A DNA stretch of 55,191 nucleotides from an uncultured Candidatus Saccharibacteria bacterium (GTDB lineage: Bacteria > Patescibacteriota > Saccharimonadia > Saccharimonadales > CALMSM01). Both the position numbers and the translations under genes were made by a program. The stretch covers positions 1 to 55,191 of the forward strand of contig CALMSM010000149.1 of assembly GCA_937872425.1 (NCBI GenBank). The letters are read 5' to 3'. Below the pieces are notes generated by a model, which saw only the letters and a program-made list of their open reading frames with translations, made no database searches and was not told the DNA's origin. This document shows, in pieces, positions 2,779 through 55,191 of this stretch (its first letter is position 1; each line of letters opens with the position of its first letter).

Positions 2779-3782
2779 TTGTATATTCTTTGTCCATTAT
2801 GGTTTTTTGTTCTGACCATAGGGACGGGCCAAGATGCTATTACCTGGCGTTTTCTATCTAACCAGGTAATAGCATCTTGGTACATATATTCAATCACTTT
2901 CATCGCCACCTTTCGCCCACTGTACGCCAAATAATACACATCAGATTTTGAATGTCGATTGATTTTTCTATCTGGATTGCTATCAACACCGGCATCTATC
3001 AGGCGTTTACGGATTAATTCAATCAGTATTGAGTCTGCCAAAAAGTTAATACCGCTGTTTGGATTAGTGAAAGCACATCCGTCTCCATCGAATAGACCTC
3101 TAAGCCAATGGTGAAACAGGTGATCTGGTATTCGTTCTATTGTTTCGTTAGGCAAGTGGCGACCGACAGATACCCCGTAAAAGTGCAATCTTTCGATTAG
3201 GTGCCTGTCTGTAACATACAAGCCGGCGCTAGGGTATTTCTTCCCTTTGCATTGCTTTTCCCTCATTACTACCGGCGCATCTGTCCTCAAAAAAGATTTT
3301 AGTTTTTCGAGATGTGTAAAATCTACGCTTTTCAGTGAGACACTTAGGCTTTTGTCGTTTGTGCTGCCATCGGCATATAGAAACCCTAGCCAGTAGGCCG
3401 CACCTTCATTATCGATGGAATCAAAAACCGTATTGTTTAGTTTGTGAATTCTGTTTCTCTCTGGCGCCAGTCTTTGCTCCACGCCCTGCCGCTTAATTGC
3501 GTCAACAATCGATATATGGTGGCTCAATCCGTACAGTTTGGCGATATTCTTCGCACTTATACCGTACAGGTACAGTTTTGCTATTTTCGCCTCCTCTTCG
3601 TCGCTGAAATTACGACTGTATATTCCGGCGCTGCGCATTTGAACGTCGTGTAACTTCAATGTCCGGTTAATTGTGTCAGTGTGTACCCCTAACGCAACGC
3701 CGATTTTAACCGTACTTTCCCCCGCAACATATAATGCCACGGCTTCTAATTCTTGCTTGTCAGATAGTCTTTTCTTTCCCAT
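2775..3782 (-). CDS. LAGLIDADG homing endonuclease with N-terminal HTH repeats
   Basis: Two LAGLIDADG motifs (WLGFLYADGS and WLRGLFDGDGC). It lies opposite in strand to the flanking structural genes, and its stop overlaps the capsid gene stop. Confidence 0.85.
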   Translation of the reverse strand: MGKKRLSDKQELEAVALYVAGESTVKIGVALGVHTDTINRTLKLHDVQMRSAGIYSRNFSDEEEAKIAKLYLYGISAKNIAKLYGLSHHISIVDAIKRQGVEQRLAPERNRIHKLNNTVFDSIDNEGAAYWLGFLYADGSTNDKSLSVSLKSVDFTHLEKLKSFLRTDAPVVMREKQCKGKKYPSAGLYVTDRHLIERLHFYGVSVGRHLPNETIERIPDHLFHHWLRGLFDGDGCAFTNPNSGINFLADSILIELIRKRLIDAGVDSNPDRKINRHSKSDVYYLAYSGRKVAMKVIEYMYQDAITWLDRKRQVIASWPVPMVRTKNHNGQRIYN

Positions 3783-4002: not shown

Positions 4003-4164
4003 ATGAATGAGCAAGTGACGATCAAAGTGTGGGCAGAGACCCGAAAAATGTTGCGGCTGATTCATGCCATGACCGGCGAGAGCATGGTCACGATATTGCA
4101 TAGGTTGGTTGAAGAAGAATGGAAGAAAGTAAAGCAGGGTTCTATAAAAACAAGCGAGTTGTAG
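4003..4164 (+). CDS. Small ribbon-helix-helix (CopG/Arc-like) protein, 53 aa, not in ORF track
   Basis: Translates as MNEQVTIKVWAETRKMLRLIHAMTGESMVTILHRLVEEEWKKVKQGSIKTSEL, which has a beta-strand/helix/helix pattern typical of RHH proteins. It is the first ORF after the consensus promoter. Confidence 0.5.
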   Translation: MNEQVTIKVWAETRKMLRLIHAMTGESMVTILHRLVEEEWKKVKQGSIKTSEL

Positions 4165-5078
4165 TGACGGGTGGCGCCGGCTTCTTGGGTTCGCATTTGG
4201 TGCAGATGCTAGAGGCGGCGGGGGCTTGTGTATATGTGCCACGTAGTACCGATTACGATCTACGGGATAGAGCGGACGCGCAATTTATGCTTAAGTCTGT
4301 AGGTGGTTTTAAGTGGGACATAGTATTCCATTTGGCCGCCCGTGTATCCGGCATTGCTTCCACCTCTGCAACACCGGCTGACCACATTTACGACAATGCA
4401 ATGATGGCGCTTAATGTGATTCACGCTTGCGCCAAGAATAATATCAAGCTTGTTGTGGCCGGTAGTGTCTGTGCTTATCCTCAACACACGCCCATGCCGA
4501 TGATCGAGGAAAACTTGTGGAATGGCGCGCCTGAACCGACCAACGCATCATACGGGGAAGCGAAACGCCTGGCATTAGCCACACTACAAGCCTACCACCA
4601 GCAACACAATTTGAAATGTGCTTATCTTCTCTCTGCCAACCTCTACGGGCCAAACGACCATTTTGACCCGCAAACTTCCCACGTTATCCCGGCACTTATC
4701 CGTAAAATTGACCATGCACAGGGGGGGGGCGATATGGGCATCTGCGTGTGGGGTAGCGGTAGCGCAAGCCGGGATTTTCTCTATGTGGAGGATGCCGCAA
4801 GAGCCTACATGCTGGCCGGTGAGTTGATTGATTGCCCCACGCCGATCAACATCGGTAGCGGCACCGAAACGCACATAGCATGGTTGGTTGAGGAATTAAA
4901 GAACATCATGGGCTTTCATGGCGATACTGTGTTTGATAGGAGCAAGCCCGATGGTCAACCCCGGCGTTGCTTGCGCATCTGGAAAGCGCAGGATATGTTG
5001 GGCTGGAATCCGACAACGCCGATAGGTGAGGGTTTACGTAAGACGGTGGAATGGTACAGGGAGAATGTAAATGAGTGA
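4119..5078 (+). CDS. GDP-L-fucose synthase-like SDR (GDP-4-keto-6-deoxymannose 3,5-epimerase/4-reductase family; Fcl/ColC-like)
   Basis: VVVTGGAGFLGSHL Rossmann motif, a YGEAK (YxxxK) motif, and SANLYGPNDHFDPQTSHVIPALIRK, which closely resembles the Fcl signature. Confidence 0.8.
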   Translation: MEESKAGFYKNKRVVVTGGAGFLGSHLVQMLEAAGACVYVPRSTDYDLRDRADAQFMLKSVGGFKWDIVFHLAARVSGIASTSATPADHIYDNAMMALNVIHACAKNNIKLVVAGSVCAYPQHTPMPMIEENLWNGAPEPTNASYGEAKRLALATLQAYHQQHNLKCAYLLSANLYGPNDHFDPQTSHVIPALIRKIDHAQGGGDMGICVWGSGSASRDFLYVEDAARAYMLAGELIDCPTPINIGSGTETHIAWLVEELKNIMGFHGDTVFDRSKPDGQPRRCLRIWKAQDMLGWNPTTPIGEGLRKTVEWYRENVNE

Positions 5079-5529
5079 CGAAAAACTTGCATCATTGCTT
5101 GATACGGTTGTTCATATAGCCGCCGTGCAAGGTTTTATGCTAAAAATAATTTGTATTTTGCAAGCCAGAATGATCGATCACGACACAAGCAAATTACAAG
5201 AGCCTGAATTGTCGGGTTATGCGGGGCTATCTCAGGCATTGAAAGGTTTAGCTTATGGTAGTTCAGAGCATAGAGCGGCTTTTACGCCATTCAAAGAAAT
5301 TATTAAGCATCACTACGAAAATAACGATCATCATCCTGAACATTTCGGTAACGGCATTGCTGATATGGACATTATACAGTTCGTAGAAATGCTATGCGAC
5401 TGGAAGGCGGCATCCACCAGAAACTCAGGTTCACTAGGTGACACTATAGACAAGAGTATTGAGAGATTCGGGATTGATACGCAGATGGCAGCGGTTATCA
5501 AAAATACTATTCGTAATCTTGGATGGTAG
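5071..5529 (+). CDS. Hypothetical protein with HD-like His/Asp motifs
   Basis: IDHDTSK and HHYENNDHHPEH motifs; ATG overlaps the upstream stop. Function is not assignable by eye. Confidence 0.4.
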   Translation: MSDEKLASLLDTVVHIAAVQGFMLKIICILQARMIDHDTSKLQEPELSGYAGLSQALKGLAYGSSEHRAAFTPFKEIIKHHYENNDHHPEHFGNGIADMDIIQFVEMLCDWKAASTRNSGSLGDTIDKSIERFGIDTQMAAVIKNTIRNLGW

Positions 5530-5544
5530 ACGGGGGGAATTGTA

Positions 5545-5739
5545 ATGGCTGAAAACGAGAGCATTCACGCATTGCTTATGATGTCAGAGTTGTTGAGACT
5601 TTTACATGGATTAAAAGGCGAAGATAGAAGCGAGAAAGCGAGACGGTATGCCGTGACCATCACGGAGATGGAGAAGGTTTTCGCTTATTTCAATACGTTC
5701 GTGGTTCGTGCCGACACCGATGAAGTGGGCGACAACTAA
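5545..5739 (+). CDS. Hypothetical protein (64 aa)
   Basis: ORF in operon context with a TAATG overlap to the next gene. Confidence 0.4.
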   Translation: MAENESIHALLMMSELLRLLHGLKGEDRSEKARRYAVTITEMEKVFAYFNTFVVRADTDEVGDN

Positions 5740-6458
5740 TGCGTATCTTCGTTCTAACCAGTGACGGTTATTCTCATTCTGTCTTGGGATTCTCCTATTT
5801 GTTCAATAAATATTGGGGCAATGACCAAGAGGTTATTGTTGCCGGTTACAATAAATTCCCGCCTGGACTACCGGCCAACTTCACCAAGCATCGCATAGGC
5901 CGCCAAGAAGATTACCCTGTCAATAAATGGTCAGACGGGCTTATCGGCTTACTGAAAGACTTCCCGCAGGACGAAGTGTTTCTTCTCTTCTTCGAGGATT
6001 ACTGGTTAACTGAACCTGTCCATCTTCGCGAAGTCAACATGCTGCACGATTACATGCTTCAATTCCGCTATGTGCTCAAAATGGACATGTACACCGACCG
6101 GCGCTATGCCGCTGGCGTGCAGAAGTACGGCGCGTGTGGGCATATTCCGCTGCTTAAAAGCGACTACAATAGTCAATATCACTTTTCGCTAATGGCGGGC
6201 ATCTGGAATCGTGAAATTATGATGCAGGTGTTAATCCCTGGTGAGAGTCCCTGGGATGTTGAGATGCGAGGTACAGAACGGCTAGCGCGTTGCGGGGATG
6301 ACGTGCTGGTGCTGGGCACTGATTCATGGGACGATAACCCGAAGACTTGCCCGATCCGTCACACACTAGCATATCGCAACGGCGACCCTAGCAAGTTGTT
6401 GCTTGGTGAAATTAAGCCCGAAGATGTGGATGCCATGAAGGAATCAGGGTATATATGA
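5739..6458 (+). CDS. Hypothetical protein, possible nucleotide-sugar transferase
   Basis: 239 aa, translationally coupled on both sides. An FFEDYW (DXD-like) motif is the only hint of function. Confidence 0.4.
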   Translation: MRIFVLTSDGYSHSVLGFSYLFNKYWGNDQEVIVAGYNKFPPGLPANFTKHRIGRQEDYPVNKWSDGLIGLLKDFPQDEVFLLFFEDYWLTEPVHLREVNMLHDYMLQFRYVLKMDMYTDRRYAAGVQKYGACGHIPLLKSDYNSQYHFSLMAGIWNREIMMQVLIPGESPWDVEMRGTERLARCGDDVLVLGTDSWDDNPKTCPIRHTLAYRNGDPSKLLLGEIKPEDVDAMKESGYI

Positions 6459-6790
6459 AGTTTTTAGTATGCGAAAGGCAAGAATCGCCGGGGTGCGATT
6501 ATACCATTGGGTGTGGCATGCGATACGGATTCATAGACGCCGAAAATATTGACGATGCAATTCAAAAGACTGTTTTCCCCGATGGCCCTGACGAGCTGCC
6601 TACCTTTTTATGGGATGGGGGTATGGCGGAGATTTTGATAGTTCAGATAGATGCATCCACATCCTATAGCTGGGTAGATATAGATTCATTAAAGGCCCAG
6701 CACGATGAGGCCGAATCAGAGGAAAAACGGAAAGCCACAGAAGTAAATGAACGGGCATTACTAGACAAGTTGCGGAAGAAATACGCGTGA
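6455..6790 (+). CDS. Hypothetical protein (111 aa)
   Basis: ATGA overlap upstream and GTGA overlap downstream. Confidence 0.4.
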   Translation: MKFLVCERQESPGCDYTIGCGMRYGFIDAENIDDAIQKTVFPDGPDELPTFLWDGGMAEILIVQIDASTSYSWVDIDSLKAQHDEAESEEKRKATEVNERALLDKLRKKYA

Positions 6791-7938
6791 AAGTTTCATT
6801 AGGCACCTGGCAAAATACGCCGCGAATCGAAGCCGCTGTGCTGTCTGTGCTGCATAGTGGCCGCTTGTCCTATGGGCCGGTATCGCAAGCCTATGAGCGG
6901 CGCTTTGCAAAAATGCACGATTGCGATTATGGCGTAGTCAGCAACAGCGGCACATCTTCTCTGGTAGTGGCATTGCAATCGCTTAAACATATGCATAGCT
7001 GGCAAGACGGCGATGAGGTGATTGTACCGGCGTTGACCTTCGTGGCATCGGTCAACGCCATTTTGCACAATCGACTTACACCTGTGCTGGTTGATGTGAA
7101 TCCCCATACATTTAATATTGAGCCAACATTAATCGAGGGTGGAATCACCGACCGCACGCGCTGTATTATGCCAGTACATCTGTTTGGTCAACCGGCGCAT
7201 ATTGCTAATATTTGCACGTTTGCGCTAAAGCATAATTTGTCAGTAGTGGAAGATAGTTGCGAAGCTGTTTTGGCAAAACAATTTGGTGCATCTGTTGGTT
7301 CATGGGGTGATGTTGGATGCTTTAGCACCTATGCCGCGCATCACCTGGTCACTGGCGTCGGTGGCATGGCAACCACGAACAATCCAGACCTAGCGAAACT
7401 TATGCGCAGCCTGGTCAATCACGGTATCGATTTGACTGAACTGCCCAACGGCGAAAATTATGACCCGTCATTTCTGGCTAGAAAGTTCAGGTTTACCAGT
7501 GTAGGCCATAGCTTCAGAATGACTGAATTAGAGGCGGCGATTGGTCTCGCTCAACTTGATGACCTACCGGCACACATTGAACATCGCCGCAAAAACGCTG
7601 AATATCTCATCACTGGCTTGACCGGCTTAGATGGTTGTCTTCAAACACAAGCGACTTTGTTTGGCGCTCACCACAGTTGGATGGTATTCCCCATTGTGCT
7701 GCGCTATGGCTCCAAGTGGCCGGTTATGAAACATCTGCAAGCGCATGACATCGAATGTCGTGAAATGGTGCCACTAACAAACCAGCCATGCTACAATTTC
7801 AACGAGGCTGATTACCCCGTGGCAAAGAACATCAACGAGCGGGGCTTCTACGTTGGGTGTCACCAGGGATTAACCACGGAGCATTTGGAACATATCATCA
7901 GTACACTACAGGACTATTTCAATGGCGCACACAAGTGA
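6787..7938 (+). CDS. DegT/DnrJ/EryC1-family PLP/PMP enzyme with His in place of the Schiff-base Lys (ColD/E1-type sugar 3-dehydratase-like)
   Basis: Family motifs are VSNSGTSSLVVAL, VPALTFVAS and VEDSCEA. The active-site segment FSTYAAHHLVTGVGG aligns to the usual FSFxxxKxxTTGEGG with H at the K position. It has a GTG start. Confidence 0.65.
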   Translation: MKVSLGTWQNTPRIEAAVLSVLHSGRLSYGPVSQAYERRFAKMHDCDYGVVSNSGTSSLVVALQSLKHMHSWQDGDEVIVPALTFVASVNAILHNRLTPVLVDVNPHTFNIEPTLIEGGITDRTRCIMPVHLFGQPAHIANICTFALKHNLSVVEDSCEAVLAKQFGASVGSWGDVGCFSTYAAHHLVTGVGGMATTNNPDLAKLMRSLVNHGIDLTELPNGENYDPSFLARKFRFTSVGHSFRMTELEAAIGLAQLDDLPAHIEHRRKNAEYLITGLTGLDGCLQTQATLFGAHHSWMVFPIVLRYGSKWPVMKHLQAHDIECREMVPLTNQPCYNFNEADYPVAKNINERGFYVGCHQGLTTEHLEHIISTLQDYFNGAHK

Positions 7939-8518
7939 ATCGTTACGGCAGGCTTTTGGTTATTTTTACCAAAACGAATTGTCCATGCTGAAGTCGTTAG
8001 TCTACCTATGCCCATCGTCACCTATCACTGTGGTCAATATCGGCGCGGGCGCTGGCACATCCGGCTTGGCTTTTTTAGAGACACGCCTCGACCTTCGCCT
8101 GCACACCGTGGATATTACCGACAAAAGCAGTCCGTTCGGATGCCTACACGCCGAACGAGAAGTATGTCAAGCGGCTGGCTTTACGCTCGGTGATAGATGG
8201 CATCAGCACCACATGGACAGTAAACAGCTCGCCCAGTGGTGGGATTATGGGCCGATAGACGTATGTTTTATCGATGGAGATCATACCTACGAGGGCGCAA
8301 GCGGCGATATTGTGGGCTGGTTGCCACACATGCGGACGGGTGGCTTTATGGCCGTGCATGATTATCGTAAGCAGGATGTACCGAGACCTGATGACGGTCA
8401 GGTTAGGCCGAGCAAAGAACTTTGTTCGGATGTAGATGTGGCCGTGGATGAATTTCTAAAATCACAGTTTGAAGTTTTTGCTTTGGTTGAATCGTTGATT
8501 GTGTTCCAGGTGAAATGA
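7922..8518 (+). CDS. Class I SAM-dependent methyltransferase
   Basis: VVNIGAGAGTSGLAF motif I and an FIDGDHTYEG motif typical of small O-methyltransferase-like enzymes. Confidence 0.75.
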   Translation: MAHTSESLRQAFGYFYQNELSMLKSLVYLCPSSPITVVNIGAGAGTSGLAFLETRLDLRLHTVDITDKSSPFGCLHAEREVCQAAGFTLGDRWHQHHMDSKQLAQWWDYGPIDVCFIDGDHTYEGASGDIVGWLPHMRTGGFMAVHDYRKQDVPRPDDGQVRPSKELCSDVDVAVDEFLKSQFEVFALVESLIVFQVK

Positions 8519-10829: not shown

Positions 10830-11681
10830 ATGCTAGTCAATCTATTTGACTTCAACTTTCGTCAATCCGTGTGTTCGGTGGCCTATCAGACACCCGAACA
10901 TATCCAGTACGTGCGAGACCTGACCACGTTTGATGGTGTGACCATCTTCACCGATGGCTATATCACCGATGGCAGCGTTGACCGTGTACGTAGTCGGTAC
11001 AAAATCGCATGGTTGCACGAGCCATACTGTTTGCATCCTGACACCTATCAGGCAGCATTACTCGACGCACACAAGTTTGACCTGGTGCTGACCTACTATC
11101 AGCCATACTTAGACCTGGGGCGTAATTTTCGCTTTTGTCCCTATGCCGGCACGTGGATAGACAAAAAGGACTGGGGTATCAAGCCGAAAACGAAATTATG
11201 TTCCATGCTCATCGGTAACAAAATGAGCACAGACGGGCATCGCATCCGGCATGACATCGCCAACATGATAGAGCGCGAAGGATACCCCGTGGACTTTTAT
11301 GGCAGCCGTGGCACACCGGTTGGGTATGGGCAAGATACCAAATACAAGGTGCTGGCCGATTACGCTTTTAGTATTTGCACGGAAACATGCTACGAAGAAA
11401 ACTTGTTTACCGAATGGCTACTAGATTGTTTTGCGCTGGGCACAATCCCGATTTACTGGGGGTGCCCAAATCTCAAACGGTTCTTTATCCATGCTGGTAT
11501 AGAACAGTTTGGTTTGGTAAAATCACTGGGATTGTCTTATTTGGATATTGTTTTAACGATGTTGTCGATGAGAAGTTATGAGAATTTTATTGAGTCGGCA
11601 CACAACAATCTAAACATAATGCAAAAATACGCCGTTACCGAGGACTGGCTATACCTGAACATGCTAAAGGAATTTGAATGA
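10830..11681 (+). CDS. Glycosyltransferase with GT10 (fucosyltransferase)-like C-terminal motif
   Basis: YAFSICTETCYEENLFTEWLLDCFALGTIPIYWG resembles the FxLxFENSxxxxYxTEK...IP(I/V)YWG region of alpha-1,3-fucosyltransferases. Confidence 0.45.
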   Translation: MLVNLFDFNFRQSVCSVAYQTPEHIQYVRDLTTFDGVTIFTDGYITDGSVDRVRSRYKIAWLHEPYCLHPDTYQAALLDAHKFDLVLTYYQPYLDLGRNFRFCPYAGTWIDKKDWGIKPKTKLCSMLIGNKMSTDGHRIRHDIANMIEREGYPVDFYGSRGTPVGYGQDTKYKVLADYAFSICTETCYEENLFTEWLLDCFALGTIPIYWGCPNLKRFFIHAGIEQFGLVKSLGLSYLDIVLTMLSMRSYENFIESAHNNLNIMQKYAVTEDWLYLNMLKEFE

Positions 11682-35073: not shown

Positions 35074-36693
35074 CTATGCTACTAATTTCATGCCTTTTGG
35101 TATACTGTCGGAAAACCCAAATTTCCCTGCAATTTTAGATTTGTCCCCCTGTAGTGAATACATGTGAAACCACTTAAACGCTTCAGTTTTGAATGTATCA
35201 GGGTCTCTACCGTCAAGATTCGACATTGCCTTGCGTAGCTGCGCTTGCGTGGTTTCTGGATAGATAGACAGATAGCCTTTACAAAAACTCTCCCAACACC
35301 GTAAACGCATAAACGAACGCTCGAGGGAGGGGGGTATTGGTAAAAAATCAACAGAAACCCCACCGGCGTTTATAGCGTTTACTGGCGTTTCTACCACCTG
35401 TAAACGGTCGTTTTCGCCATCGTTTACAGGTGCTTCTGTGTCGTTTATCGTTTCTACTGGCGTTTTCAAACATCGCCACTGCAACGGCGGATACTCACGG
35501 CGGATATCAATCAACTCTGCTGTGTGCCAAGCATTATAAAACACATTATCTTGGCTGAACACCCCTACATGAGGCAAGCGATCAACATGATACTCGTTGA
35601 ATGCGTTGGCCACCATCCCCTTGAGCTTGTAGCATGTCACGAATTTGGCGTTGCCACGCATTTGGGCTGTCCATTTTTCAGGCGCCTGGTCAATCAGGCA
35701 CAATACAATACCAGTAGCGCGGCCTAATCGAAACAATCGGTCAACCTTTTGCGCTAAATCTGCTCTAGCGGCCTTGTCCAACGTCATCCACACAGACCCA
35801 AATTCCTCTATAATGACAAATAGAGTAGGCGGGCGCTTGCCAGTTGCCTTGTAAATTGTCGATAGGTTATTTTTCTGCAACCACCCCCAGCGCCTATCAA
35901 AGATTGTCATCAGTTGATCGAATTGATTGACGACAGTACCAACACTCATAGCGTGCCACTCGGCCACGCCATTAAACGCACGCCAGTCTATGCCCTCTTT
36001 GCCATCCAACACGATGGGGTGCAAGTTATACTTGCGCGCATAGGCTACCATAAGCATTGCCGTGCTTTCGGTTTTACCGCTACCGGTGCCACCAATGATT
36101 GCGGCGTGCGTGGTTCGGTAGTCAAACATCAACATTTGGCCGGCGAGTTTACTGGCTTCAGGTGTCGGCTGAATATCGGCAGCTTGCCCGATAATCCACG
36201 CACGCTCTGTCGATTGATTGATGGCCTGCTGTAGTGTAATGGCGGCTGGCATTTGCTCTACGGCTGGTTGTTCGGTCGTGTATCGCGCCATCTCTTTTGC
36301 TTCCCGTTCCTCGGCTGCACGTAGCAAATTTCCAACCTGCAACGATTTGTGCTCTTTCTGTTTAGCCTTATATTCTTTCTCTTCCGCATACACGCCCTCA
36401 GCGCGCTTGGCGGCTGCTACACTCAGTTTGGCAGGGTATTTTACCATTACATAAACTTTTGCAAATACATAGGCGGCAACGCACACAATAGTCAAAAAAA
36501 GCGCTGATGGCGCTGCCCACCACATGGCCGTGGCCCAAGCGGATGATTCAACAGGCGGCGCATACGCTACTACGCCCACCGGCTGCGCCGCCGTCAGATT
36601 GTCGATGGCGATGTTTAATGGCCTCAATCCGCCAGCGGCGATTGTGCCAAGCACGCCGATGCCAGCGGTTAAAATGGCGTTTTTGAATCCCAC
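35074..36693 (-). CDS. FtsK/SpoIIIE (TraB-like) DNA translocase ATPase with N-terminal TM segments
   Basis: Walker A IIGGTGSGKTES and Walker B LFVIIEEFGS, with a hydrophobic N-terminal 90 aa. Confidence 0.8.
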   Translation of the reverse strand: MGFKNAILTAGIGVLGTIAAGGLRPLNIAIDNLTAAQPVGVVAYAPPVESSAWATAMWWAAPSALFLTIVCVAAYVFAKVYVMVKYPAKLSVAAAKRAEGVYAEEKEYKAKQKEHKSLQVGNLLRAAEEREAKEMARYTTEQPAVEQMPAAITLQQAINQSTERAWIIGQAADIQPTPEASKLAGQMLMFDYRTTHAAIIGGTGSGKTESTAMLMVAYARKYNLHPIVLDGKEGIDWRAFNGVAEWHAMSVGTVVNQFDQLMTIFDRRWGWLQKNNLSTIYKATGKRPPTLFVIIEEFGSVWMTLDKAARADLAQKVDRLFRLGRATGIVLCLIDQAPEKWTAQMRGNAKFVTCYKLKGMVANAFNEYHVDRLPHVGVFSQDNVFYNAWHTAELIDIRREYPPLQWRCLKTPVETINDTEAPVNDGENDRLQVVETPVNAINAGGVSVDFLPIPPSLERSFMRLRCWESFCKGYLSIYPETTQAQLRKAMSNLDGRDPDTFKTEAFKWFHMYSLQGDKSKIAGKFGFSDSIPKGMKLVA

Positions 36694-40996: not shown

Positions 40997-43555
40997 CTAA
41001 GCCGCAACTTTTTGCAGATCCATTAGGTCAAACAGTGTAGGCGTTGTGCGTTCGGCTTCAGCCTCGCGCAGATATTTGCAGCTATTCTCCCAATAAAGCG
41101 AGTTAAGTTCAGTCCCTAGAGCAGAACGCCCCAACTTTAACGCCATATAACCGACCGTGCCAAGACCATGAAACGGGTCAAAAATCAACTCATCAGGGTT
41201 GCTATAACGCACAATCAAGCGCTCTACAATATCTAGCGGCAACGGGCATACGTGTTTCTCTACGCGTCGCCGGGCCTGATTCATGTTGAGCGTGCGCATA
41301 AACAGTACATCTGTCCAGACCGTTTCTTCATACGCATCTGGCGCTTGTGGTGGCATCAGCATGAATTTCGCCGGGAGCCGGTCCCCCATCGTCTCATTGA
41401 AGGCGACGTGCTGGTGATAGTCGTAGGGTTGACCTTTGCTCCAATCACGATACCAGTTGTATACCTGGCTACCGTCCATGTTGGCTAGCAGCGACGGATC
41501 ATCTGCCGGAGTAGGCGCTAGCGCTTTGCCATTGCTACGCCAGAGGCTGTGGGCGTCAATCTGCCATTGTCCGCGGCTGTAATCCTTTTTGTCTTTGCGC
41601 ACCGGTTCATCAGCATAACTGCGACTTTTGTCAGTCTGTGGTTTTCTAAAGAGCAACACCTTTTCACTCAGACCGACGCCCATTTTTGAGCCATCCTTGC
41701 AGCACTCAGACCAGCCCAGCCGGTTCGTGCTGTTATTCTCTCGCACTACGTCAGTGGGGATAAAAATTTCTCCATAACTGACAAAGCCGTGCTTCTTGAA
41801 CGCTCGCGCGCAATCATGCGTGAAGTAATCCACTTCCATCATGCCGTGTGGCGTCTGGTGGCCGTAGAGCAGACGGTCTTTGACGTGGATACAGGCCATG
41901 CGTCCTGGTTTCAACACACGTAGCAACTCAGGAATTAGGAAATCCATCTGCGTCCAAAAATCGTTATCGGCCTGGTTGTGGCCGAAGTCGTTGAGACTGG
42001 CGACGTATTCGTAATGGTTGCCGAACGGAATTGATGTAACAATTTCATCAACGCTATTGTCCGGCATGGCCATCGTTTCAATGACGCAATCGTTATTAAT
42101 GGCAGTCCAGTATTGCCCACGCTGCTCTTGGCGCGTGACGCCTAGCGTACGCTGCATCCCTGCGCTCAAAGCCTCGTTGGTCAGGCCAAACTCCTTGATA
42201 ATGGCTTTCATGCGAGCAACCATTTCGTTGTGCTGTTGCCATTTCTTAAGCAACACTTCAACAACGTGATCTTCGGCGTCCGTGTGGACAATATGAATAT
42301 TCACGGCCCTTGTTTGACCGTAACGTAAAAGCCGATGCACGGATTGAATAAAATCACGGAATTTATACCCAACTCCCAGGTAAATCGCGTTGTGGCAATA
42401 ACCCTGAAAATTGCAACCAGAACCACTCAGTTGAGGTTTTGTCGCTAAAATAGGCAGTTTTCCATGCTGAAAATCCAAGATAATCTGTTCGCGCTCATCA
42501 ATGTCTTGACTACCGTAAACTTCCTTCGCGAGAGGAATAGCCTTTTTGATGGCTTTGCGCTCATCTTCTAAATCGTGCCAAATCACCCAATGCTCCGTCT
42601 TGTCAGCCTCAACAATTTCAGCAGCCTTTCCTACTCGCATGGACATACTGTCCCGTTTTTCACGGATGGCTTGCGTTGTGCTCATAGAGGTGTCTTTGAG
42701 CAAAAAGGCTTGACCGTCTCTATTTGCAATATTCCATGCCTTTTCGTGATCAGCTGTAATGCGATGCCAGTGGATTTTTAGCTCCGGCATAATGTATCCG
42801 TCGTCGCTATAGCCCAAGTCACTGGGCTTATCCAAAAATAATGCCCAGCTTGCCACGGATAGCCAAAATTCATTTTCCATGTGCGGCAACAACTCTAAAT
42901 CGCCAGCCTCATCAGGGTTGCGACCAAACCACCGCGTCAAAGCTTGCCCGTCGTCCATTGCGCCAAGGAAATCAGCAAAATAAATCAGTTGGCGGTAATC
43001 GTTCGGAGCGGGCGTAGCCGTGGCAACCCAACGGTAGGGTATACCAGTCAGGATATAATTAAATTGTACCTGCGTCTCAGTTCCCAAATTCCCCAAAATT
43101 GCGCCTTCATCAAGGCAAACGCCACCTATCTCACTGAGCAGGAATTCAATGCTTAAATTTCCATCGCGAACGCGTTCATAGTTCGTGATAAGATATGGAG
43201 TGCCCGCCGATAATGCTTCGTTATCGTTTCGCACATAACGAAAATCGCACCCCATCGCCGGGCCATCTTCGTAAATGAATTGCTGCCGTACACCGAGCGG
43301 ACAAATAACCAACACGCTCTTGCCTGTAATTCTATGCACCTGACGCAATAACTCAATCTGCATTCTGGTCTTGCCCATACCGAAGCTGGCCGCAATCAGC
43401 GCTTTGCCGCGCTGCAACGCCCACATTACGGCATCGCGCTGATGCGGAAATAGCGACGGGTGCAAATCTTCAGGCTTGACCGTCAGTCCACCGCTAGTCG
43501 TTAGCGTGTTTTTGTTGCGTAAAAAATCAATGTACTGCTGCTGTTTGTTCATCAT
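40997..43555 (-). CDS. SNF2/DEAD-like helicase fused to an amino-type (N6-A/N4-C) DNA methyltransferase
   Basis: The N-terminal part has FGMGKT (motif I) and LDEGA (motif II). The C-terminal part has a TSIPFG catalytic-type motif and the SAM motif DPFHGLGTVG. Confidence 0.8.
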   Translation of the reverse strand: MMNKQQQYIDFLRNKNTLTTSGGLTVKPEDLHPSLFPHQRDAVMWALQRGKALIAASFGMGKTRMQIELLRQVHRITGKSVLVICPLGVRQQFIYEDGPAMGCDFRYVRNDNEALSAGTPYLITNYERVRDGNLSIEFLLSEIGGVCLDEGAILGNLGTETQVQFNYILTGIPYRWVATATPAPNDYRQLIYFADFLGAMDDGQALTRWFGRNPDEAGDLELLPHMENEFWLSVASWALFLDKPSDLGYSDDGYIMPELKIHWHRITADHEKAWNIANRDGQAFLLKDTSMSTTQAIREKRDSMSMRVGKAAEIVEADKTEHWVIWHDLEDERKAIKKAIPLAKEVYGSQDIDEREQIILDFQHGKLPILATKPQLSGSGCNFQGYCHNAIYLGVGYKFRDFIQSVHRLLRYGQTRAVNIHIVHTDAEDHVVEVLLKKWQQHNEMVARMKAIIKEFGLTNEALSAGMQRTLGVTRQEQRGQYWTAINNDCVIETMAMPDNSVDEIVTSIPFGNHYEYVASLNDFGHNQADNDFWTQMDFLIPELLRVLKPGRMACIHVKDRLLYGHQTPHGMMEVDYFTHDCARAFKKHGFVSYGEIFIPTDVVRENNSTNRLGWSECCKDGSKMGVGLSEKVLLFRKPQTDKSRSYADEPVRKDKKDYSRGQWQIDAHSLWRSNGKALAPTPADDPSLLANMDGSQVYNWYRDWSKGQPYDYHQHVAFNETMGDRLPAKFMLMPPQAPDAYEETVWTDVLFMRTLNMNQARRRVEKHVCPLPLDIVERLIVRYSNPDELIFDPFHGLGTVGYMALKLGRSALGTELNSLYWENSCKYLREAEAERTTPTLFDLMDLQKVAA

Positions 43556-47318: not shown

Positions 47319-48227
47319 GTGAGGATGATCTATGCGTACAGCGACCATGTCAGTGGTGGTGGATTGGTAGATGTTGGCATGATCCAGGCCGACCATACGC
47401 CGACGTGGGCCGTAGAGTTTAATCAGTCCATCGCTGACGTGTACCGGCGCAACGTAGGTGATCACATCATTGTGGCCGACGTTGCCGATGTGGATTATGC
47501 CGCATTGCCGAGTGTGGACTGGCTGCACGCGTCGCCATCCTGTATTAATGCCAGCCATGCAAAAGTGGATAATGGTGAGGCTGGATCAGACATCCATAGC
47601 GCCCATGCAGTAGTACGTGCATTAAGAGCGCAGCGCCCCCGCTTTTTTACATTGGAGAATGTTTGGGAGTATCGCAATTTTCAGGCATTCAGATTGATTC
47701 TAAATGCCGTGGCCGATATGGGCTACATGTACGATTTCAATCATGTCAACATGGCAAATTATGGCGTGCCTCAAAATCGCTGGCGATTATTCCTGGTGGC
47801 ATCGAGGGGACTACTGCCGACAATCCCGAAATCAAAGCCGGTAGGCTGGTTGGCGGCAATTGAGGATTTGGCGCCTGGGCTGAAAGAATCCACGTTTCCG
47901 GCTTGGCAGATCGCGAAATTAGCGGGGAACAAAAAGCGAGAATTTGTGATCAACGGGGCTAATGCGAGTTCAAAGTTTTCATTCCCCATCGTTGCGCCTG
48001 GCGCGCCGATCTTCACAATCACGTCGAATTTCGGAAAAATTGCAACCAGGATGCAGATCGGTGGGAAGATACGCATGGCGTCGCCTCGATGCTATGCCCG
48101 CTGGCAGACCATGCCGGACAGTTACGCGCTACCGTCCGATAAAAAACTGGCCTGCACAATCATAGGTAATGGTGTTCCCTGCGAGTTTGTCCGTAGGGTA
48201 GGTGTAAGTTTTAACGAGGCAACATGA
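47319..48227 (+). CDS. DNA (cytosine-5)-methyltransferase
   Basis: SGGG (motif I-like), SPSC (motif IV, PC), TLENV (VI), QNRWR (VIII) and GNGVP (X). Confidence 0.85.
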   Translation: MRMIYAYSDHVSGGGLVDVGMIQADHTPTWAVEFNQSIADVYRRNVGDHIIVADVADVDYAALPSVDWLHASPSCINASHAKVDNGEAGSDIHSAHAVVRALRAQRPRFFTLENVWEYRNFQAFRLILNAVADMGYMYDFNHVNMANYGVPQNRWRLFLVASRGLLPTIPKSKPVGWLAAIEDLAPGLKESTFPAWQIAKLAGNKKREFVINGANASSKFSFPIVAPGAPIFTITSNFGKIATRMQIGGKIRMASPRCYARWQTMPDSYALPSDKKLACTIIGNGVPCEFVRRVGVSFNEAT

Positions 48228-50529: not shown

Positions 50530-50721
50530 AGAGGGGCGCAATCCCCTAGCCGAAAAACCCGCCAGTTTAGTTTTACCCTAGCCTCTATATCTTTCGATGT
50601 AGGGGACGGGGTGCAACTAAGGCACCAAAAAAACCCGAAAGATTCCCACAGAATCAATCGGGCCAACCAAATGTTTTGTTCGAGTGCAGTATACAAGATA
50701 TTCAAGAAAGAGGATAATTTT

Positions 50722-51405
50722 ATGATTCATGATCCGTGGGCCTCAGCAGTAGAAGACGCCGAACGCGGCGACTATTTATGGGGACAAATTCAAATCGATG
50801 TGGGTTTCGTCATTCTGAAAAAAGGTCAACCCAAACATACGTGGATTGAAGGAGACGATCCCAAAGATCGCAGCACAGAGATCAGCTTTACGCTGAATCC
50901 CATTGGCGAAATGGGCTTGACCAAGCTGATTCAGCGCTCCGTGCTCAGTGATGCGCGTGGCGAATGGGGCCGCATTGTATGGCCGTCATTGCGCGATGGG
51001 TGTGGGCTGAAAGAACTTCGACCGTTAGAGGGGAAGTTTGTCAAAATTGAGACTGTTAAAAATGGTCGAAAATGGACAAATAAAGATGGCGACCTGATGG
51101 AAGGAACAACCTTCAAATTTCATGCCATTTTTGATAGCGAAAAAACTTGCGTTGACAACTATCTCGGTGAGGGCAATGTATCAAAAGCCACAGTGCCAGA
51201 AGGCAATCCCGCTATGACGGTTGACATGGATACACCCGTGGTTAACCAGGAGCGCGAAACGGCATTAGCATTTTTGCCCGCTCTGGTCAAACAGACCAAA
51301 GGCAATATCGACATGCTGAAAACCATGCTTGACGGGATGCCGATGATCTCGAAATTCTTCACCGTGGATTCACCTGAAGTCAAACAATTGATTGGAGCAA
51401 CATAA
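50722..51405 (+). CDS. Hypothetical protein heading the recombination module (227 aa; internal start)
   Basis: AGAGGA RBS ahead of MIHDPWAS. The upstream part of the listed ORF overlaps the tRNA-like region. Confidence 0.45.
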   Translation: MIHDPWASAVEDAERGDYLWGQIQIDVGFVILKKGQPKHTWIEGDDPKDRSTEISFTLNPIGEMGLTKLIQRSVLSDARGEWGRIVWPSLRDGCGLKELRPLEGKFVKIETVKNGRKWTNKDGDLMEGTTFKFHAIFDSEKTCVDNYLGEGNVSKATVPEGNPAMTVDMDTPVVNQERETALAFLPALVKQTKGNIDMLKTMLDGMPMISKFFTVDSPEVKQLIGAT

Positions 51406-51530
51406 TGGACATTCAATTTATTTTGGCGTTAGTCCCTGATTCAGAATTCTTCAACTCCTACGCAGAACTCTACACAGCCGCACTCCTCGCAGATGAAGAA
51501 GCCGCCCAACAATTTTTGTTCAGTCTGTAA
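51405..51530 (+). CDS. 41-aa micro-ORF, not in ORF track
   Basis: TAATG overlap with the upstream gene. The peptide is MDIQFILALVPDSEFFNSYAELYTAALLADEEAAQQFLFSL. Confidence 0.3.
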   Translation: MDIQFILALVPDSEFFNSYAELYTAALLADEEAAQQFLFSL

Positions 51531-51532
51531 TT

Positions 51533-51571
51533 AAAAATGGCCTCATCTGTTAAATTGATGAGGCCATTTTT
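51533..51571. terminator. Intrinsic terminator, A/T tracts on both sides
   Basis: AAAAATGGCCTCATC / GATGAGGCCATTTTT. Confidence 0.75.
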
Positions 51572-51585
51572 AACAGGAAGCAACT

Positions 51586-52353
51586 ATGCTAACAGCAATA
51601 ATGATTGATACAAATGAGCTAGCGACAGCGCCCTGGCTCAATAAATTGACGTTCGGCGGTGTGCCAAAGATGCCAGCTAATTTAGAGTATGGCGACATTT
51701 TGGCAACCACAGACACAGGTGATTTGATTTGTATTGAGCGTAAGACGCCAACAGACTTGCTCAATAGTATCAAAGATAAACACATCTTCTATCAAGCTGC
51801 CGGGATGCGTGACAAATCACCGTGGTCTTACATCGTTGTCACTGGGATTATACGACCTATCGGTTGCAATGTGATGACCGATAGCGGGGTGACTGGTTGG
51901 GGTTGGAATTCTTTGCAGGGTGCATTACGTGAAATTCAGGAAATGGGCGTTGTGATTATCTATTGTCTGGGTGATGAGGAATATGAAGCAACTGTGTTGG
52001 GACTGTGCAATCGAGATTTATCAAAAGAGAAAGTCTTGCAACCGGCAATGAAAAGCCGGGAAATGTCCTACGGTGAAATCATGCTGACTAGTCTACCGGG
52101 CATTGGCATTGAACGGGCGAACACGTTGTTGTGTCTGTTCAACTACAACCCTGCCAAAGCCTTATCGTGGTTGACGCATAAACAGTCAACTATCAACGCT
52201 CAAGGTTTCGGGGATGGCATCAAGCGATCTGTCAAATCCGCTTTGTCACTCGGAGAATACGACGAACTGTTCATTGTGAACAGTGCTCACTATCCAGAAA
52301 TAGCAGAGTACCTTCACAATGCTGAAGAAATTGAAAAGGAATTGAACAAATGA
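51586..52353 (+). CDS. ERCC4 (XPF/Mus81/Hef)-type structure-specific nuclease with C-terminal HhH
   Basis: The GDILATT...LICIERKTPTDLLNSIKDKHIFYQ signature (GDxn-ERKxxxD), plus LTSLPGIGIERANTLL. Confidence 0.8.
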   Translation: MLTAIMIDTNELATAPWLNKLTFGGVPKMPANLEYGDILATTDTGDLICIERKTPTDLLNSIKDKHIFYQAAGMRDKSPWSYIVVTGIIRPIGCNVMTDSGVTGWGWNSLQGALREIQEMGVVIIYCLGDEEYEATVLGLCNRDLSKEKVLQPAMKSREMSYGEIMLTSLPGIGIERANTLLCLFNYNPAKALSWLTHKQSTINAQGFGDGIKRSVKSALSLGEYDELFIVNSAHYPEIAEYLHNAEEIEKELNK

Positions 52354-53102
52354 ACGCAATTGTTAAACACGAATTACAACCAACCACATGGGCGATGATT
52401 CAAACCATCGCATTGAGCGCGAAAGCTTCAGGGAAATTAGGATTGTTCAGACAAGAAGAAGCCGAAATCAAAATGCTCACAGCCTGGGAGAATGGCCTGC
52501 CGCTTACGTCAGCCTTTCAAACTGTGCATGTAATTAACAACGTGCCAGCACTATCGCCAAAAGCTATTTGGGGGAAAATTGTAATTAGTGGTGAATTCGA
52601 CGGCTATCAAGAGGAACGTCTTGTTGATAAGAAAGGCGATTTTCTTGGATACAAAATTTCCCTCAAGCGCAAAAATGGAGTTAGCGCTACCCGTCAATTT
52701 ACTTTGGAAGATGCCAAGCGCGCCAAGCTAGACACAAAAGACAATTGGTTGATGTACGCTGAAGCAATGTGCTACTGGCGCGCACAAGGTTTCGTTCAGG
52801 ATGTGGTTTTCCCTGACATTACTTTGGGCATGGTGCGCGCTGATGCTTTAGGCGCAATGGTAACAACCGAGGGTGATGTAATTGATGGCTCTTGGACTGT
52901 AACACCAGTGCAAAAACCACAGACGCCCCGCATGACTATGAATGAACTGTTGGCTAAATATGGCGCAGATCAAATCCTTCTGATCAACGATGGAAAAATC
53001 CCGCAAACACCAGAAGACATAGAGCGAGTCAATGCCCTGCTAGCGCGGCAAGACAAAAACCTTGAATTCACAATGGCCGATGTGGTTGAGGCAAAACCAT
53101 GA
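52350..53102 (+). CDS. RecT-family single-strand annealing protein (tentative)
   Basis: General RecT-like pattern including NWLMYAEAMCYWRAQGF; ATGA coupling to the nuclease gene. Confidence 0.5.
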   Translation: MNAIVKHELQPTTWAMIQTIALSAKASGKLGLFRQEEAEIKMLTAWENGLPLTSAFQTVHVINNVPALSPKAIWGKIVISGEFDGYQEERLVDKKGDFLGYKISLKRKNGVSATRQFTLEDAKRAKLDTKDNWLMYAEAMCYWRAQGFVQDVVFPDITLGMVRADALGAMVTTEGDVIDGSWTVTPVQKPQTPRMTMNELLAKYGADQILLINDGKIPQTPEDIERVNALLARQDKNLEFTMADVVEAKP

Positions 53103-53689
53103 ACACAATGCAGTTGTTTGAAATTCGCTATATCGGACGGTGCAAAAACCGCCAGGATGGATCGCAGACGGCTTACGGATGGTGTCAAAATGCGTGGTCA
53201 GTAGCTATTAGTAAATCAGCTTTATATGCCTGGTTTGGACTATCAGAAAAGCCGGGTGAATCGTCAACGCTCTACAATGTACTTAGTGTTGAATCAAGCG
53301 TTAGCGCTGATGAGATCAAAAAGGCTTATCGACGCTTGGCTAAACAATGGCACCCAGACGTTTGTAAGGAATTGGATGCAAGAAAACAATTCGACGCTAT
53401 CCAAAACGCCTACACAATCCTGACTACCAAGCGTGAAAAATATGATGCCGGTCTAGCTCTACAGGCCAGCTTACCACGCACAGAGAACGCCAGCGACCTG
53501 TTAAATCAGGACTATGGCTATCGTTCGCCGCTCCGCTGTGGGTATATTTTAGGAGAGGGGCATAGCAAGAGCGGTAAATTTATCGTTGAAAAAATCTTGC
53601 AATGGACTGACATTTTCGATAGTCAGGGTAGAGTTTTGGTGTCGTCCTGGCCAATGGGCAGTGAGAAACCTATGGAGCAATGGCTATGA
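53099..53689 (+). CDS. J-domain (DnaJ-like) protein
   Basis: LYNVLSVESSVSADEIKKAYRRLAKQWHPDV, with the HPD tripeptide. Confidence 0.8.
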   Translation: MNTMQLFEIRYIGRCKNRQDGSQTAYGWCQNAWSVAISKSALYAWFGLSEKPGESSTLYNVLSVESSVSADEIKKAYRRLAKQWHPDVCKELDARKQFDAIQNAYTILTTKREKYDAGLALQASLPRTENASDLLNQDYGYRSPLRCGYILGEGHSKSGKFIVEKILQWTDIFDSQGRVLVSSWPMGSEKPMEQWL

Positions 53690-54255
53690 ACAATTTAATG
53701 AAAACCACAGTGGTCAAGGGAAGTTTGAGCCAGGTGTCAAAAGACACAGGGATCGCGCTAGCTGAATCATTCCTAAATGCAGATTGCATTGTCCTGGTAG
53801 ATGTTTCGAGCAGCATGGAAGACAAAGACGCGCAAGGCGGAAAATCACGCTATGAGGCGGCTTGCACTGAACTGGCTGCACTGCAAGCCAGTATGCCGGG
53901 TAAAATCGCCGTGCTCGCCTTCAGTAACGATTGTGTGTTCTGTCCATCTGGAACACCGCTGATGATGGGTGGCGGCACAGACCTAGCCAAAGCCTTACAG
54001 TTTGCAAAAGTGGCAGATGTGCCTGATATGCGCTTTATTGTGATTAGCGACGGTCAACCTAACGAGCCTGAAAGGACGTTAACTATTGCCAAAGGTTACA
54101 AAAACCGCATCGATACAATTTACGTGGGGCCTGAAGTTTCGCGCACAGGTCAAGACTTTTTGGCACGGTTGGCAAAGCAAAATTCAGGTCAAACTGTTAC
54201 AGCGGATAGAGTTTTACAATTGAGCAGTAAAATGAAATTGTTATTAGCGGCTTAG
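53680..54255 (+). CDS. von Willebrand factor A (vWA) domain protein
   Basis: The MIDAS motif VLVDVSSSMED, plus downstream GGGTDL and ISDGQPN. Confidence 0.75.
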   Translation: MAMNNLMKTTVVKGSLSQVSKDTGIALAESFLNADCIVLVDVSSSMEDKDAQGGKSRYEAACTELAALQASMPGKIAVLAFSNDCVFCPSGTPLMMGGGTDLAKALQFAKVADVPDMRFIVISDGQPNEPERTLTIAKGYKNRIDTIYVGPEVSRTGQDFLARLAKQNSGQTVTADRVLQLSSKMKLLLAA

Positions 54256-54265
54256 GGAAGTTCTT

Positions 54266-55191
54266 ATGATTGATCCTCGTTTTGCAGACTTCACGAAGTG
54301 TCTTTGGCGCGGCGGCTCTTTCGCTTATTGGTGGTCTCCAGATGGTGACGAAGGAAATTTGTCTTCATGGTTTCCAGTAGATAAACAGCGCTCGGTGTGG
54401 AACTCCAACACAATTAATATTTATTTTGGCGTCCACCCGTCCATTGTAAAGCGCGGAATGCGCCAGCGGGCATTACTAGAAACCATCGAAGCCGTCAACT
54501 GTTTATTTGCCGAGTTTGATTTAATCGAGGGTCAATCAAAAGAACATTTGTTGCAGTCCATTAGCCAGTTAGACACACCGCCCAGTGTGGTTATATTCAG
54601 CGGGGGCGGCTATCATACATATTGGCTGCTAGAACAAACCTATCATATTGACAGTCCAGATGCTCGACAGCGCATTATGGACATTCAATACGCCTGGGTT
54701 GATTTTGTTGGCAGTGATAACGCGGCGAAGGACATTACGCGCGTCTTGCGCGTACCAGGCAGTTACAACCGTAAACCACAGTACGATCCAGACTATCCAC
54801 AGGTGCAGATTGTTAAATTCGACATGGATTTGATTTATAGTTTGGATGATTTTACCAAACAGATTGAACCATTAATTGAGCAGACAAAAACAAAACGGGT
54901 TGCAGTAGCAAATCAGGACACCGTACCTGTGGAATTAGACGACCAAACCATCCTTGAGAAAATGCAGCAGAAAGACTCTGTGGCCGCTGCTCTGTGGTCT
55001 GGCGATATGTCAGACTACAAAGACGATCACAGCGACGCTGACATGGCGCTGTGCAATCGTTTGGCGTTTTGGTTTGGCCGAGACAAAGACCGTATTGACA
55101 AGGTGTTTCGCCGGTCTGGGCTATTTCGTCCAAAATGGCTTAGAGACGATTACCGCAATGCTACTATTGATAAAGCCGTGGCGTCATGCGC
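54266..55191 (+). CDS. Primase-polymerase (prim-pol) with PriCT-like region, 3'-truncated by window end; absent from ORF track
   Basis: The frame is open from ATG 54266 to the window end. Motifs: FSGGGYHTYW, VLRVPGSYN, DHSDADMALCNRLAFWFGRD..IDKVFRRSGLFR. Confidence 0.75.
   Translation, partial: MIDPRFADFTKCLWRGGSFAYWWSPDGDEGNLSSWFPVDKQRSVWNSNTINIYFGVHPSIVKRGMRQRALLETIEAVNCLFAEFDLIEGQSKEHLLQSISQLDTPPSVVIFSGGGYHTYWLLEQTYHIDSPDARQRIMDIQYAWVDFVGSDNAAKDITRVLRVPGSYNRKPQYDPDYPQVQIVKFDMDLIYSLDDFTKQIEPLIEQTKTKRVAVANQDTVPVELDDQTILEKMQQKDSVAAALWSGDMSDYKDDHSDADMALCNRLAFWFGRDKDRIDKVFRRSGLFRPKWLRDDYRNATIDKAVASC

Follow-up and report, generated by a model that had tools for sequence, protein, structure and literature searches.

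An ERCC4/XPF-type nuclease gene as the fixed neighbour of exchangeable annealase genes in a phage recombination module

Introduction

Recombineering is built on the annealase systems lambda Red and RecET, which are also major forces behind the mosaicism of phage genomes, and to our knowledge all characterised phage annealase systems pair the annealase with a resection exonuclease. In lambda Red (Exo-Beta) and RecET, a single-strand annealing protein (SSAP) of the RecT/Red-beta fold is encoded beside its nuclease in a phage operon with translational coupling, and the C-terminal domain of Red-beta is a docking module that binds lambda Exo and the single-stranded DNA-binding protein SSB. Here we analyse a locus of similar layout in a 55,191-nt stretch of DNA (the window; contig CALMSM010000149.1 of assembly GCA_937872425.1, binned as an uncultured Candidatus Saccharibacteria bacterium), in which an open reading frame (ORF) for an ERCC4/XPF-type nuclease (positions 51586..52353, plus strand) is followed by one for a divergent RecT-like annealase (52350..53102, plus strand). 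The window is the entire contig C149 of a fragmented metagenome-assembled genome (MAG; 1.59 Mb, 287 contigs) and reads as ~80% of a tailed-phage genome of ~68.5 kb in total, which runs on into the MAG contig C12 with a 77-nt overlap. Whereas lambda Red and RecET use a processive 5'-3' exonuclease, the nuclease in this locus is a junction-type ERCC4 endonuclease; the counterpart of their exonuclease in the wider family of related loci is a Cas4-like PDDEXK_1 nuclease, which is absent from the window phage.

The structures cleaved by XPF-family enzymes are 3' flaps, forks and nicked junctions. The short archaeal XPF of Aeropyrum pernix (2bgw) and the nuclease domain of Pyrococcus Hef (1j22) have the same domain order and size as the phage nuclease (an ERCC4 domain plus a tandem helix-hairpin-helix, (HhH)2, in ~215-255 amino acids (aa)), share its GDXnERKX3D motif and are its best sequence matches in the PDB and NCBIfam. 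They differ in that the similarity is distant, and in that archaeal XPF is a stand-alone gene in a cellular chromosome, whereas the phage nuclease is tied to an annealase gene and lacks a conserved PCNA-type C-terminal motif.

The closest functional precedent is found in eukaryotes, where Rad52-dependent single-strand annealing likewise combines a Rad52-superfamily-type annealase with an XPF-family nuclease, Rad1-Rad10/XPF-ERCC1, which removes the 3' non-homologous tails (PMC6007489, PMC8481969, PMC13578500); a recruitment interface between the XPF-family nuclease and recombination factors (Saw1) is also known there (PMC13578500). In contrast to the phage nuclease, a probable homodimer, XPF-ERCC1 is a heterodimer of a catalytic and a non-catalytic subunit; moreover, ~40% of the phage loci have a RecA-like Sak4 ATPase as annealase, and the phage link is known from genomes alone. 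A likely equivalent role, the structure-specific cleavage of joints of recombination or replication before packaging, is played in other phages by lambda Rap, RusA, RuvC-like enzymes, T4 endonuclease VII and T7 endonuclease I. These resolvases are of other fold and origin and are usually linked far less tightly than ERCC4 to an annealase gene; no member of their families was detected on the phage contigs. An ERCC4-type nuclease has been listed in Bacillus phage vB_BteM-A9Y among replication and repair genes, near Gam, an AAA ATPase and a primase (PMC10535572), but this is a passing annotation and the protein is not detectably similar to the window clade (tblastn, 50,697 GenBank phage records). 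Our literature search found no study linking ERCC4, XPF or Mus81-type nucleases with RecT, Sak4 or SSAP modules in phages. The module described below is a previously unstudied phage annealase recombination system that has an XPF-type junction nuclease as its fixed partner.

Results

The 255-aa product of 51586..52353 comprises a nuclease domain and an (HhH)2-type C-terminal domain. It matched Pfam PF02732 over residues 7-131 with 42.3 bits (cut-off 24; E-value (E) 8.7e-11), a result repeated in a six-frame search of the genome, and its NCBIfam matches to the Hef nuclease (NF010337, E 7e-10) and to archaeal Xpf (NF040956, E 1.3e-5) carried the alignment on to residue 186. The best PDB chains were Aeropyrum XPF (2bgw/2bhn, E ~1e-3) and the Pyrococcus Hef nuclease. 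The GD...ERKT..D residues aligned one for one with those of Aeropyrum XPF, which placed the catalytic motif (GDXnERKX3D) at G36-D37 ... E51-R52-K53-T-P-T-D57 (51691..51756, plus strand). In an alignment of 31 homologues sharing 34-90% identity, D37, E51, R52, K53, T54, D57 and Q70 were invariant and D8 and E11 were at least 90% conserved. The helix-hairpin-helix region (52063..52260, plus strand) consists of LPGIGIERA (residues 170-178) and a second GxG hairpin (~206-222), and L170, P171, G172, I173, G174 and L222 were invariant in the same alignment; the Pfam HHH match was sub-threshold (E 0.05, residues 167-183), and the region is covered by the Hef and Xpf profile alignments. A tandem helix-hairpin-helix is thus predicted at the C-terminus, and the ERCC4 signature followed by such a domain, first noticed by a reading of the sequence without database searches (the sequence-only reading), was borne out by PF02732, by the Hef and Xpf alignments and by the invariant motif and LPGIG.

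Because the motif residues are invariant, the protein looks like an intact, active nuclease, and by sequence we place it in the ERCC4 superfamily, as a member whose catalytic motif is intact and whose architecture is the short one of archaeal XPF; a catalytically dead ERCC4 of the ERCC1/EME1 kind was ruled out, every motif residue being invariant. Its scores fell far below the equivalog cut-offs (37.6 bits against 610 for Hef, 24.8 against 300 for Xpf), and it is therefore predicted to be homologous but not orthologous to archaeal Xpf and Hef. It is probably a homodimer. PF02732 was carried by all but one of 106 homologues, and a search of 1.84 billion representatives with the nuclease profile gave 5,423 matches, with ~203 clusters at 50% identity reaching E<=1e-30. 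The phage nucleases formed a monophyletic clade apart from the archaeal XPFs used as outgroup (95% support in the SH-like approximate likelihood ratio test, SH-aLRT). Members of this clade are encoded by bacterial phages and prophages, for the most part from Chloroflexota MAGs and isolates. Prophage copies occur in large Anaerolineae contigs, among them one of the cultured Ornatilinea apprima P3M-1 (L087, NZ_LGCL01000045.1, at ~165.2 kb). Neither tblastn of the nuclease against the 50,697 GenBank phage records nor blastn of positions 50600-55191 against GenBank phages gave a match. In agreement with the earlier view that this architecture is uncommon in bacteria, ERCC4 was found in 4 of 14 control genomes, all four of them archaea and no other, and a 2012 survey of the PD-(D/E)XK superfamily lists ERCC4 as 'Archaea & Eukaryota' (PMC3424549).

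The second ORF, predicted to encode a 250-aa divergent RecT-family SSAP, gave nothing of the kind in direct searches. No RecT match was obtained in Pfam (even at E<=10, where a lone match at 0.14 was unrelated), in NCBIfam or by phmmer against the PDB; the sole PHROG match was to an unrelated virion-protein family (E 0.0017); and a PDB search with a 35-sequence profile of the protein's family found nothing. Its relatives were more informative. We collected 115 homologues, many of which carry a precomputed PF03837 (RecT) assignment, and this family was present in homologues at 33-54% identity (E 1e-30 to 1e-70); among the 35 homologues aligned, 24 matched PF03837 in Pfam searches, with a best E of 9.5e-9. 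An AlphaFold (AF2) model built on the homologue alignment, with a predicted local distance difference test (pLDDT) score of 86, had RecT 7ub2, lambda Red-beta 7ujl and RecT 7ubb as its top three PDB fold matches in Foldseek. The match to 7ub2, the Listeria phage A118 RecT on annealed duplex, spanned 166 columns (probability 1.0, E 1.1e-3), that to 7ujl also had a probability of 1.0, and 7ubb is RecT on single-stranded DNA (ssDNA); TM-scores for these RecT and Red-beta folds were moderate (0.34-0.55). Since the direct family searches were empty, the RecT identity was taken from the homologues and the predicted fold, and by these we regard the protein as a predicted, divergent RecT-fold SSAP. 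Direct profile searches confirmed only the first of the two domains named by the sequence-only reading; for the second ORF they pointed to no SSAP family, a result that taken alone would speak against an annealase, and it is the homologue and fold evidence that rescues the assignment. In GenBank phages, tblastn of this protein gave only four weak matches, one of them annotated as an SSAP. In Komagataeibacter phage phiKX1 (locus L168), a distant RecT-like gene is followed by a 'DnaQ-like exonuclease'.

The two genes are coupled by an ATGA overlap of the ERCC4 stop and the RecT start at 52350-52353, exactly as first read from the sequence. To assess how well this arrangement is conserved, we used the nuclease profile to retrieve 110 loci, 80 on viral contigs of IMG/VR and 30 on genome contigs of GTDB. 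A gene matching the RecT-family profile lay directly downstream of ERCC4 on the same strand in 99 of them, of which ~60 are true RecT and ~40 are Sak4-type ATPases that match the profile only through a shared ~45-residue C-terminal tail. Five of the exceptions were cellular XPF loci of archaea, and the others were a few truncated contigs or P-loop cases of the Sak4 type. Conversely, of the 49 loci that the RecT profile retrieved, 46 had ERCC4 directly upstream, and two of the three exceptions begin at a contig end. In ~80 of 100 related loci the recombinase start was within 30 nt of the ERCC4 stop or overlapped it. The pairing of ERCC4 with a recombinase gene is thus far beyond chance. Two variants of the pair were also seen. 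In loci L001 (2143-2712), L002 and L004 the ERCC4 and RecT genes are separated, and their usual coupling broken, by the insertion of an HNH_3 homing-endonuclease gene (Pfam E 5.6e-9); L001 and L002 are among the nearest relatives of the window. Locus L104, a 2.6 kb contig binned as Promethearchaeota (an Asgard archaeon MAG), holds a divergent ERCC4 and RecT-like pair with the same tail; its branch is long, and its archaeal assignment, made by binning, is tentative.

The slot behind the nuclease is filled by three kinds of recombinase: divergent RecT (~60 loci), an AAA_24/Sak4-type ATPase (~26 loci; PF13479, E 5.7e-25) and a longer AAA_24 type (~15 loci; E 5.7e-8). ERCC4 is therefore not RecT-specific, since ~40 loci hold a Sak4-type ATPase in the same slot. 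When mapped on the nuclease tree, the recombinase type changed at least 15 times, at least 4-5 of these changes being forced by well-supported branches. RecT and both AAA_24/Sak4 types have in common the ~45-residue C-terminal tail (consensus ...TLDDLLAQYGAEAIMEANGGKIPATDEEIAAVAAKL...), and the recombinases next to the sister nucleases of L099 (Sak4) and L101 (RecT) have nearly identical tails. A hidden Markov model (HMM) of the tail matched recombinase C-termini only (97 ORFs of these loci), together with the window protein (E 5.3e-15, residues 192-239; 52923..53066, plus strand). In the AF2 model this part of the annealase folds into two helices (197-212 and 221-238) with pLDDT 84-95, preceded by a linker with pLDDT 52-57. 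The weak RecT-profile matches downstream of ERCC4 (E 1e-5 to 1e-9) had been considered as degenerate RecTs, and this was rejected: they are AAA_24/Sak4-type ATPases that share the tail only. The tail is probably a docking module. It is also kept in loci that have no Cas4-like gene, which makes the Cas4-like nuclease an unlikely sole partner; ERCC4 and a probable SSB-like protein encoded upstream are the constant candidates. Recruitment through the C-terminal tail, with an interface comparable to that of eukaryotic single-strand annealing, is plausible.

The sequence-only reading had placed ERCC4 in the slot of the usual exonuclease. On this phage, no lambda-Exo/YqaJ, RecE or Cas4-like exonuclease was detected by profile searches over its ~68.5 kb (Pfam and PHROG, ~45 ORFs); PF09588, PF12705 and an HMM of the relatives' PDDEXK_1 had no match on C149 or C12, the YqaJ, PDDEXK_1 and RusA matches of the bin being all on other contigs (C212, C60 and C178 for YqaJ and PDDEXK). 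Nor was any other junction resolvase or resection nuclease found on the phage contigs. The remaining nuclease-related genes among the ~45 phage ORFs were a DEDD 3'-5' exonuclease, a LAGLIDADG-like homing endonuclease and the terminase; the DEDD-type gene (L111 14544-15227, equal to C12 1722-2462; PF10108, E 1e-9) lies ~350 nt beyond the end of the primase gene and its product may be an alternative nuclease partner. Across the family the picture was different. A Cas4-like PDDEXK_1 nuclease (PF12705, E 8e-24) sits beside the recombinase, together with ERCC4, in 70 of 105 related loci, and it is missing from the window lineage, including its nearest relatives L001, L002 and L081. With both nucleases present in two thirds of the loci, ERCC4 is an extra and more strongly conserved component, not a stand-in, and the exonuclease is the part lost in this lineage. 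The earlier placement fits what is detectable on this phage but finds no support as a reading of the family at large.

These data bear on the proposal that ERCC4 takes the place of the resection exonuclease and, by cutting into forks, D-loops or nicked duplexes, supplies RecT with ssDNA or ends in a self-sufficient two-component system. The lack of a detectable YqaJ, RecE or Cas4-like exonuclease on the phage, the lack of PDDEXK_1 within +/-5 kb in about one third of the related loci and the tight coupling of the gene pair would fit it. However, some of the loci scored as lacking PDDEXK_1 are truncated contigs, the retention of both nucleases in two thirds of the loci implies that they are not alternatives, and ERCC4 enzymes are junction-cutting endonucleases that make no long ssDNA. 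We consider this proposal unlikely. The suggestion of a different way of generating or resolving recombination intermediates divides into two, resolving being the best reading and generating the less likely one.

Clustering of the neighbours revealed a conserved order of a 227-aa protein, ERCC4, recombinase, Cas4-like PDDEXK_1, J-domain protein, VWA protein and primase-helicase. In 98 of 103 loci ERCC4 is directly preceded by a homologue of the 227-aa protein that the window encodes at 50722..51405, plus strand (up227). The window protein had no sequence match in Pfam, PHROG, NCBIfam or the PDB, and none of 32 homologues matched Pfam, their PDB profile matches being spurious and to designed helical repeats only. 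Its AF2 model (pLDDT 88.5) gave weak PDB fold matches to SSB and MCM N-terminal OB folds (E 7e-3 to 7e-2) and, in BFVD, matches to phage proteins of which several are named ssDNA-binding protein or DUF669 (E 3e-5 to 1e-2, low TM-scores). From these models up227 is probably an OB-fold, SSB-like ssDNA-binding protein with a C-terminal helical domain, which is the weakest assignment in the module. Its stop is overlapped by a 41-aa ORF (51405..51530, plus strand), also called on a contig of the same phage in ENA, with one weak homologue in the related loci. After it, just upstream of the ERCC4 ribosome-binding site, comes a strong, terminator- or attenuator-like hairpin with a U-tract (51532..51577, plus strand), a perfect stem of 11-16 bp flanked by an A-tract and a U-tract. 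Its RNA fold of -29.5 kcal/mol (z -8.9) was equalled by none of 200 shuffles, and a consensus scan missed it because of its 9-nt loop. It is possibly a bidirectional terminator or an attenuator that splits the SSB-like gene from the nuclease, annealase and replication genes.

Downstream, a second ATGA (53099-53102) joins the RecT stop to the start of the J-domain gene (53099..53689, plus strand; Pfam DnaJ E 4.3e-19; homologues in 86 of 103 loci), which overlaps by 10 nt the VWA-domain gene (53680..54255, plus strand; Pfam VWA_2 E 1.8e-6; homologues in 60 loci). The window ends within the N-terminal part of a gene for a 759-aa primase-polymerase/VapE-type helicase (54266..55191, plus strand; Pfam RepB_primase and NrS-1 HBD) that continues on C12 and is seen complete on the ENA contig. 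This context raises the alternative that ERCC4 is a Hef- or Mus81-like fork enzyme of the adjacent primase-helicase replisome, acting on stalled or reversed forks or at the start of recombination-dependent replication, and that its place beside the annealase reflects a general operon. It agrees with the best NCBIfam match of the nuclease, to the Hef nuclease region, with the module always running on into the J-domain, VWA and primase-helicase genes, and with the position of the operon, which opens the replication genes and is preceded by a regulated leader. It agrees less well with the location of ERCC4 immediately 5' of the recombinase gene, usually overlapping it, in nearly all loci, with the retention of that position while the recombinase type changes, and with the primase and other downstream genes being less constant. 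We regard this alternative as rather unlikely.

The tailed-phage traits of the window are a 1634-aa ORF of tape-measure size, two tRNAs, a divergent repressor/Cro-like pair, methylases and the replication block, and the same phage was also assembled as the 67.9 kb ENA contig. C12 contributes the remaining part of the primase, the DEDD exonuclease, a ParB-like protein, a TET-associated glycosyltransferase (TAGT), the large terminase and a 726-aa ORF without family matches that may be the portal. The leftward early block contains, among ORFs without family matches, a 539-aa FtsK/HerA-type ATPase (35074-36693, minus strand), and between plus-strand genes there is a minus-strand, 335-aa ORF with helix-turn-helix and LAGLIDADG_3 domains (2775-3782), likely a homing endonuclease. 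The nuclease was absent from the relatives of the MAG (genomes of 0.6-1.3 Mb). The phage contigs C149 and C12 were probably mis-binned, and the binning probably does not identify the host. As to the bin itself, it is about twice the size of a same-genus relative (1.59 against 0.8 Mb), and it also holds pieces of a second phage that is 82-85% identical to the window phage (contigs C102, C63 and C116).

The phage further carries sugar-nucleotide genes (NAD epimerase/dehydratase, DegT aminotransferase, methyltransferase and a GT10-like glycosyltransferase) and DNA-modification genes (a C5 cytosine methylase, a fusion of SNF2 helicase with an N6/N4 methylase, and TAGT), located at window positions 4119-8518, 10830-11681, 40997-43555 and 47319-48227 and, for the TAGT gene of C12, at L118 8631-9209. 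Together they suggest DNA hypermodification or glycosylation. With its own DNA modified, the phage could in principle use ERCC4 as an offensive or self/non-self nuclease against unmodified host or competing DNA, and its C5 methylase, SNF2-N6/N4 methylase and TAGT would be in keeping with this. Against it, ERCC4 is syntenic with the SSB-like and annealase genes while the modification genes lie outside the conserved neighbourhood, and we know of no ERCC4 enzyme that acts in this way, which makes such a function highly improbable. Taken together, the sequence data make both the replacement of an exonuclease and a self/non-self nuclease less likely, and they are compatible with the fork enzyme.

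Discussion

We consider it fairly likely that ERCC4 serves as the flap-trimming or branch-resolving enzyme of the annealase module, and it is probably not a resection enzyme. The nuclease is kept across annealase folds, which implies that a step of flap or branch removal would be built into the system. In the sequence of events that we propose, the SSB-like protein would coat ssDNA and RecT would anneal it; the ERCC4 dimer would be brought to the annealase-DNA complex, possibly by the shared C-terminal tail, and would cut branched annealing products, namely 3' non-homologous flaps and perhaps D-loops, forks and nicked junctions. The joints would then be ligatable, and concatemers would be unbranched before packaging. 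Resection would in most relatives presumably be performed by the Cas4-like PD-(D/E)XK nuclease encoded right after the recombinase, and in the phage lineage lacking that gene it might depend on host nucleases or on an enzyme of the phage that has escaped recognition, or ssDNA already present at replication forks might serve instead.

Several considerations weigh against this assignment. The branch-nuclease activity of the clade is a prediction from sequence and genomic context, and the role is assigned by gene adjacency, by which flap trimming, cleavage of forks or D-loops and replication restart are indistinguishable. Archaeal short XPF requires PCNA for activity, and in the 31-homologue alignment the C-terminus of the phage nuclease beyond the helix-hairpin-helix was unconserved and no clamp-binding motif was identified. 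The tail could have the SSB-like protein, the J-domain protein or the primase as its partner instead of ERCC4. The hairpin between the SSB-like gene and ERCC4 may mean that the three genes are not co-expressed stoichiometrically, and a divergent exonuclease or resolvase is possible among the several unannotated phage ORFs.

A bolder and more doubtful extension of the flap-trimming role, though one we hold to be possible, is that the module is a compact phage equivalent of Rad52 with XPF-ERCC1. An XPF-type homodimer recruited by the tail would clip 3' heterologous tails whichever annealase, RecT or Sak4, is present, and would make 'relaxed' recombination possible between diverged phage genomes, with no need of a dedicated exonuclease. 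On this view the tail would be a transferable docking module, which would explain how recombinase cores were swapped repeatedly while the nuclease was retained.

The module is widespread (~200 clusters at 50% identity), and throughout it an XPF-type nuclease is kept at the annealase gene whatever the annealase fold. If the proposed role is true, it would be the first bacterial-virus counterpart of Rad52 with XPF-ERCC1, would offer a simple homodimeric XPF for mechanistic study, and would possibly allow better recombineering with imperfectly matched or tailed substrates. The presence of one tail on unrelated recombinase cores makes this family a ready means of testing whether protein docking in phage recombination is modular.

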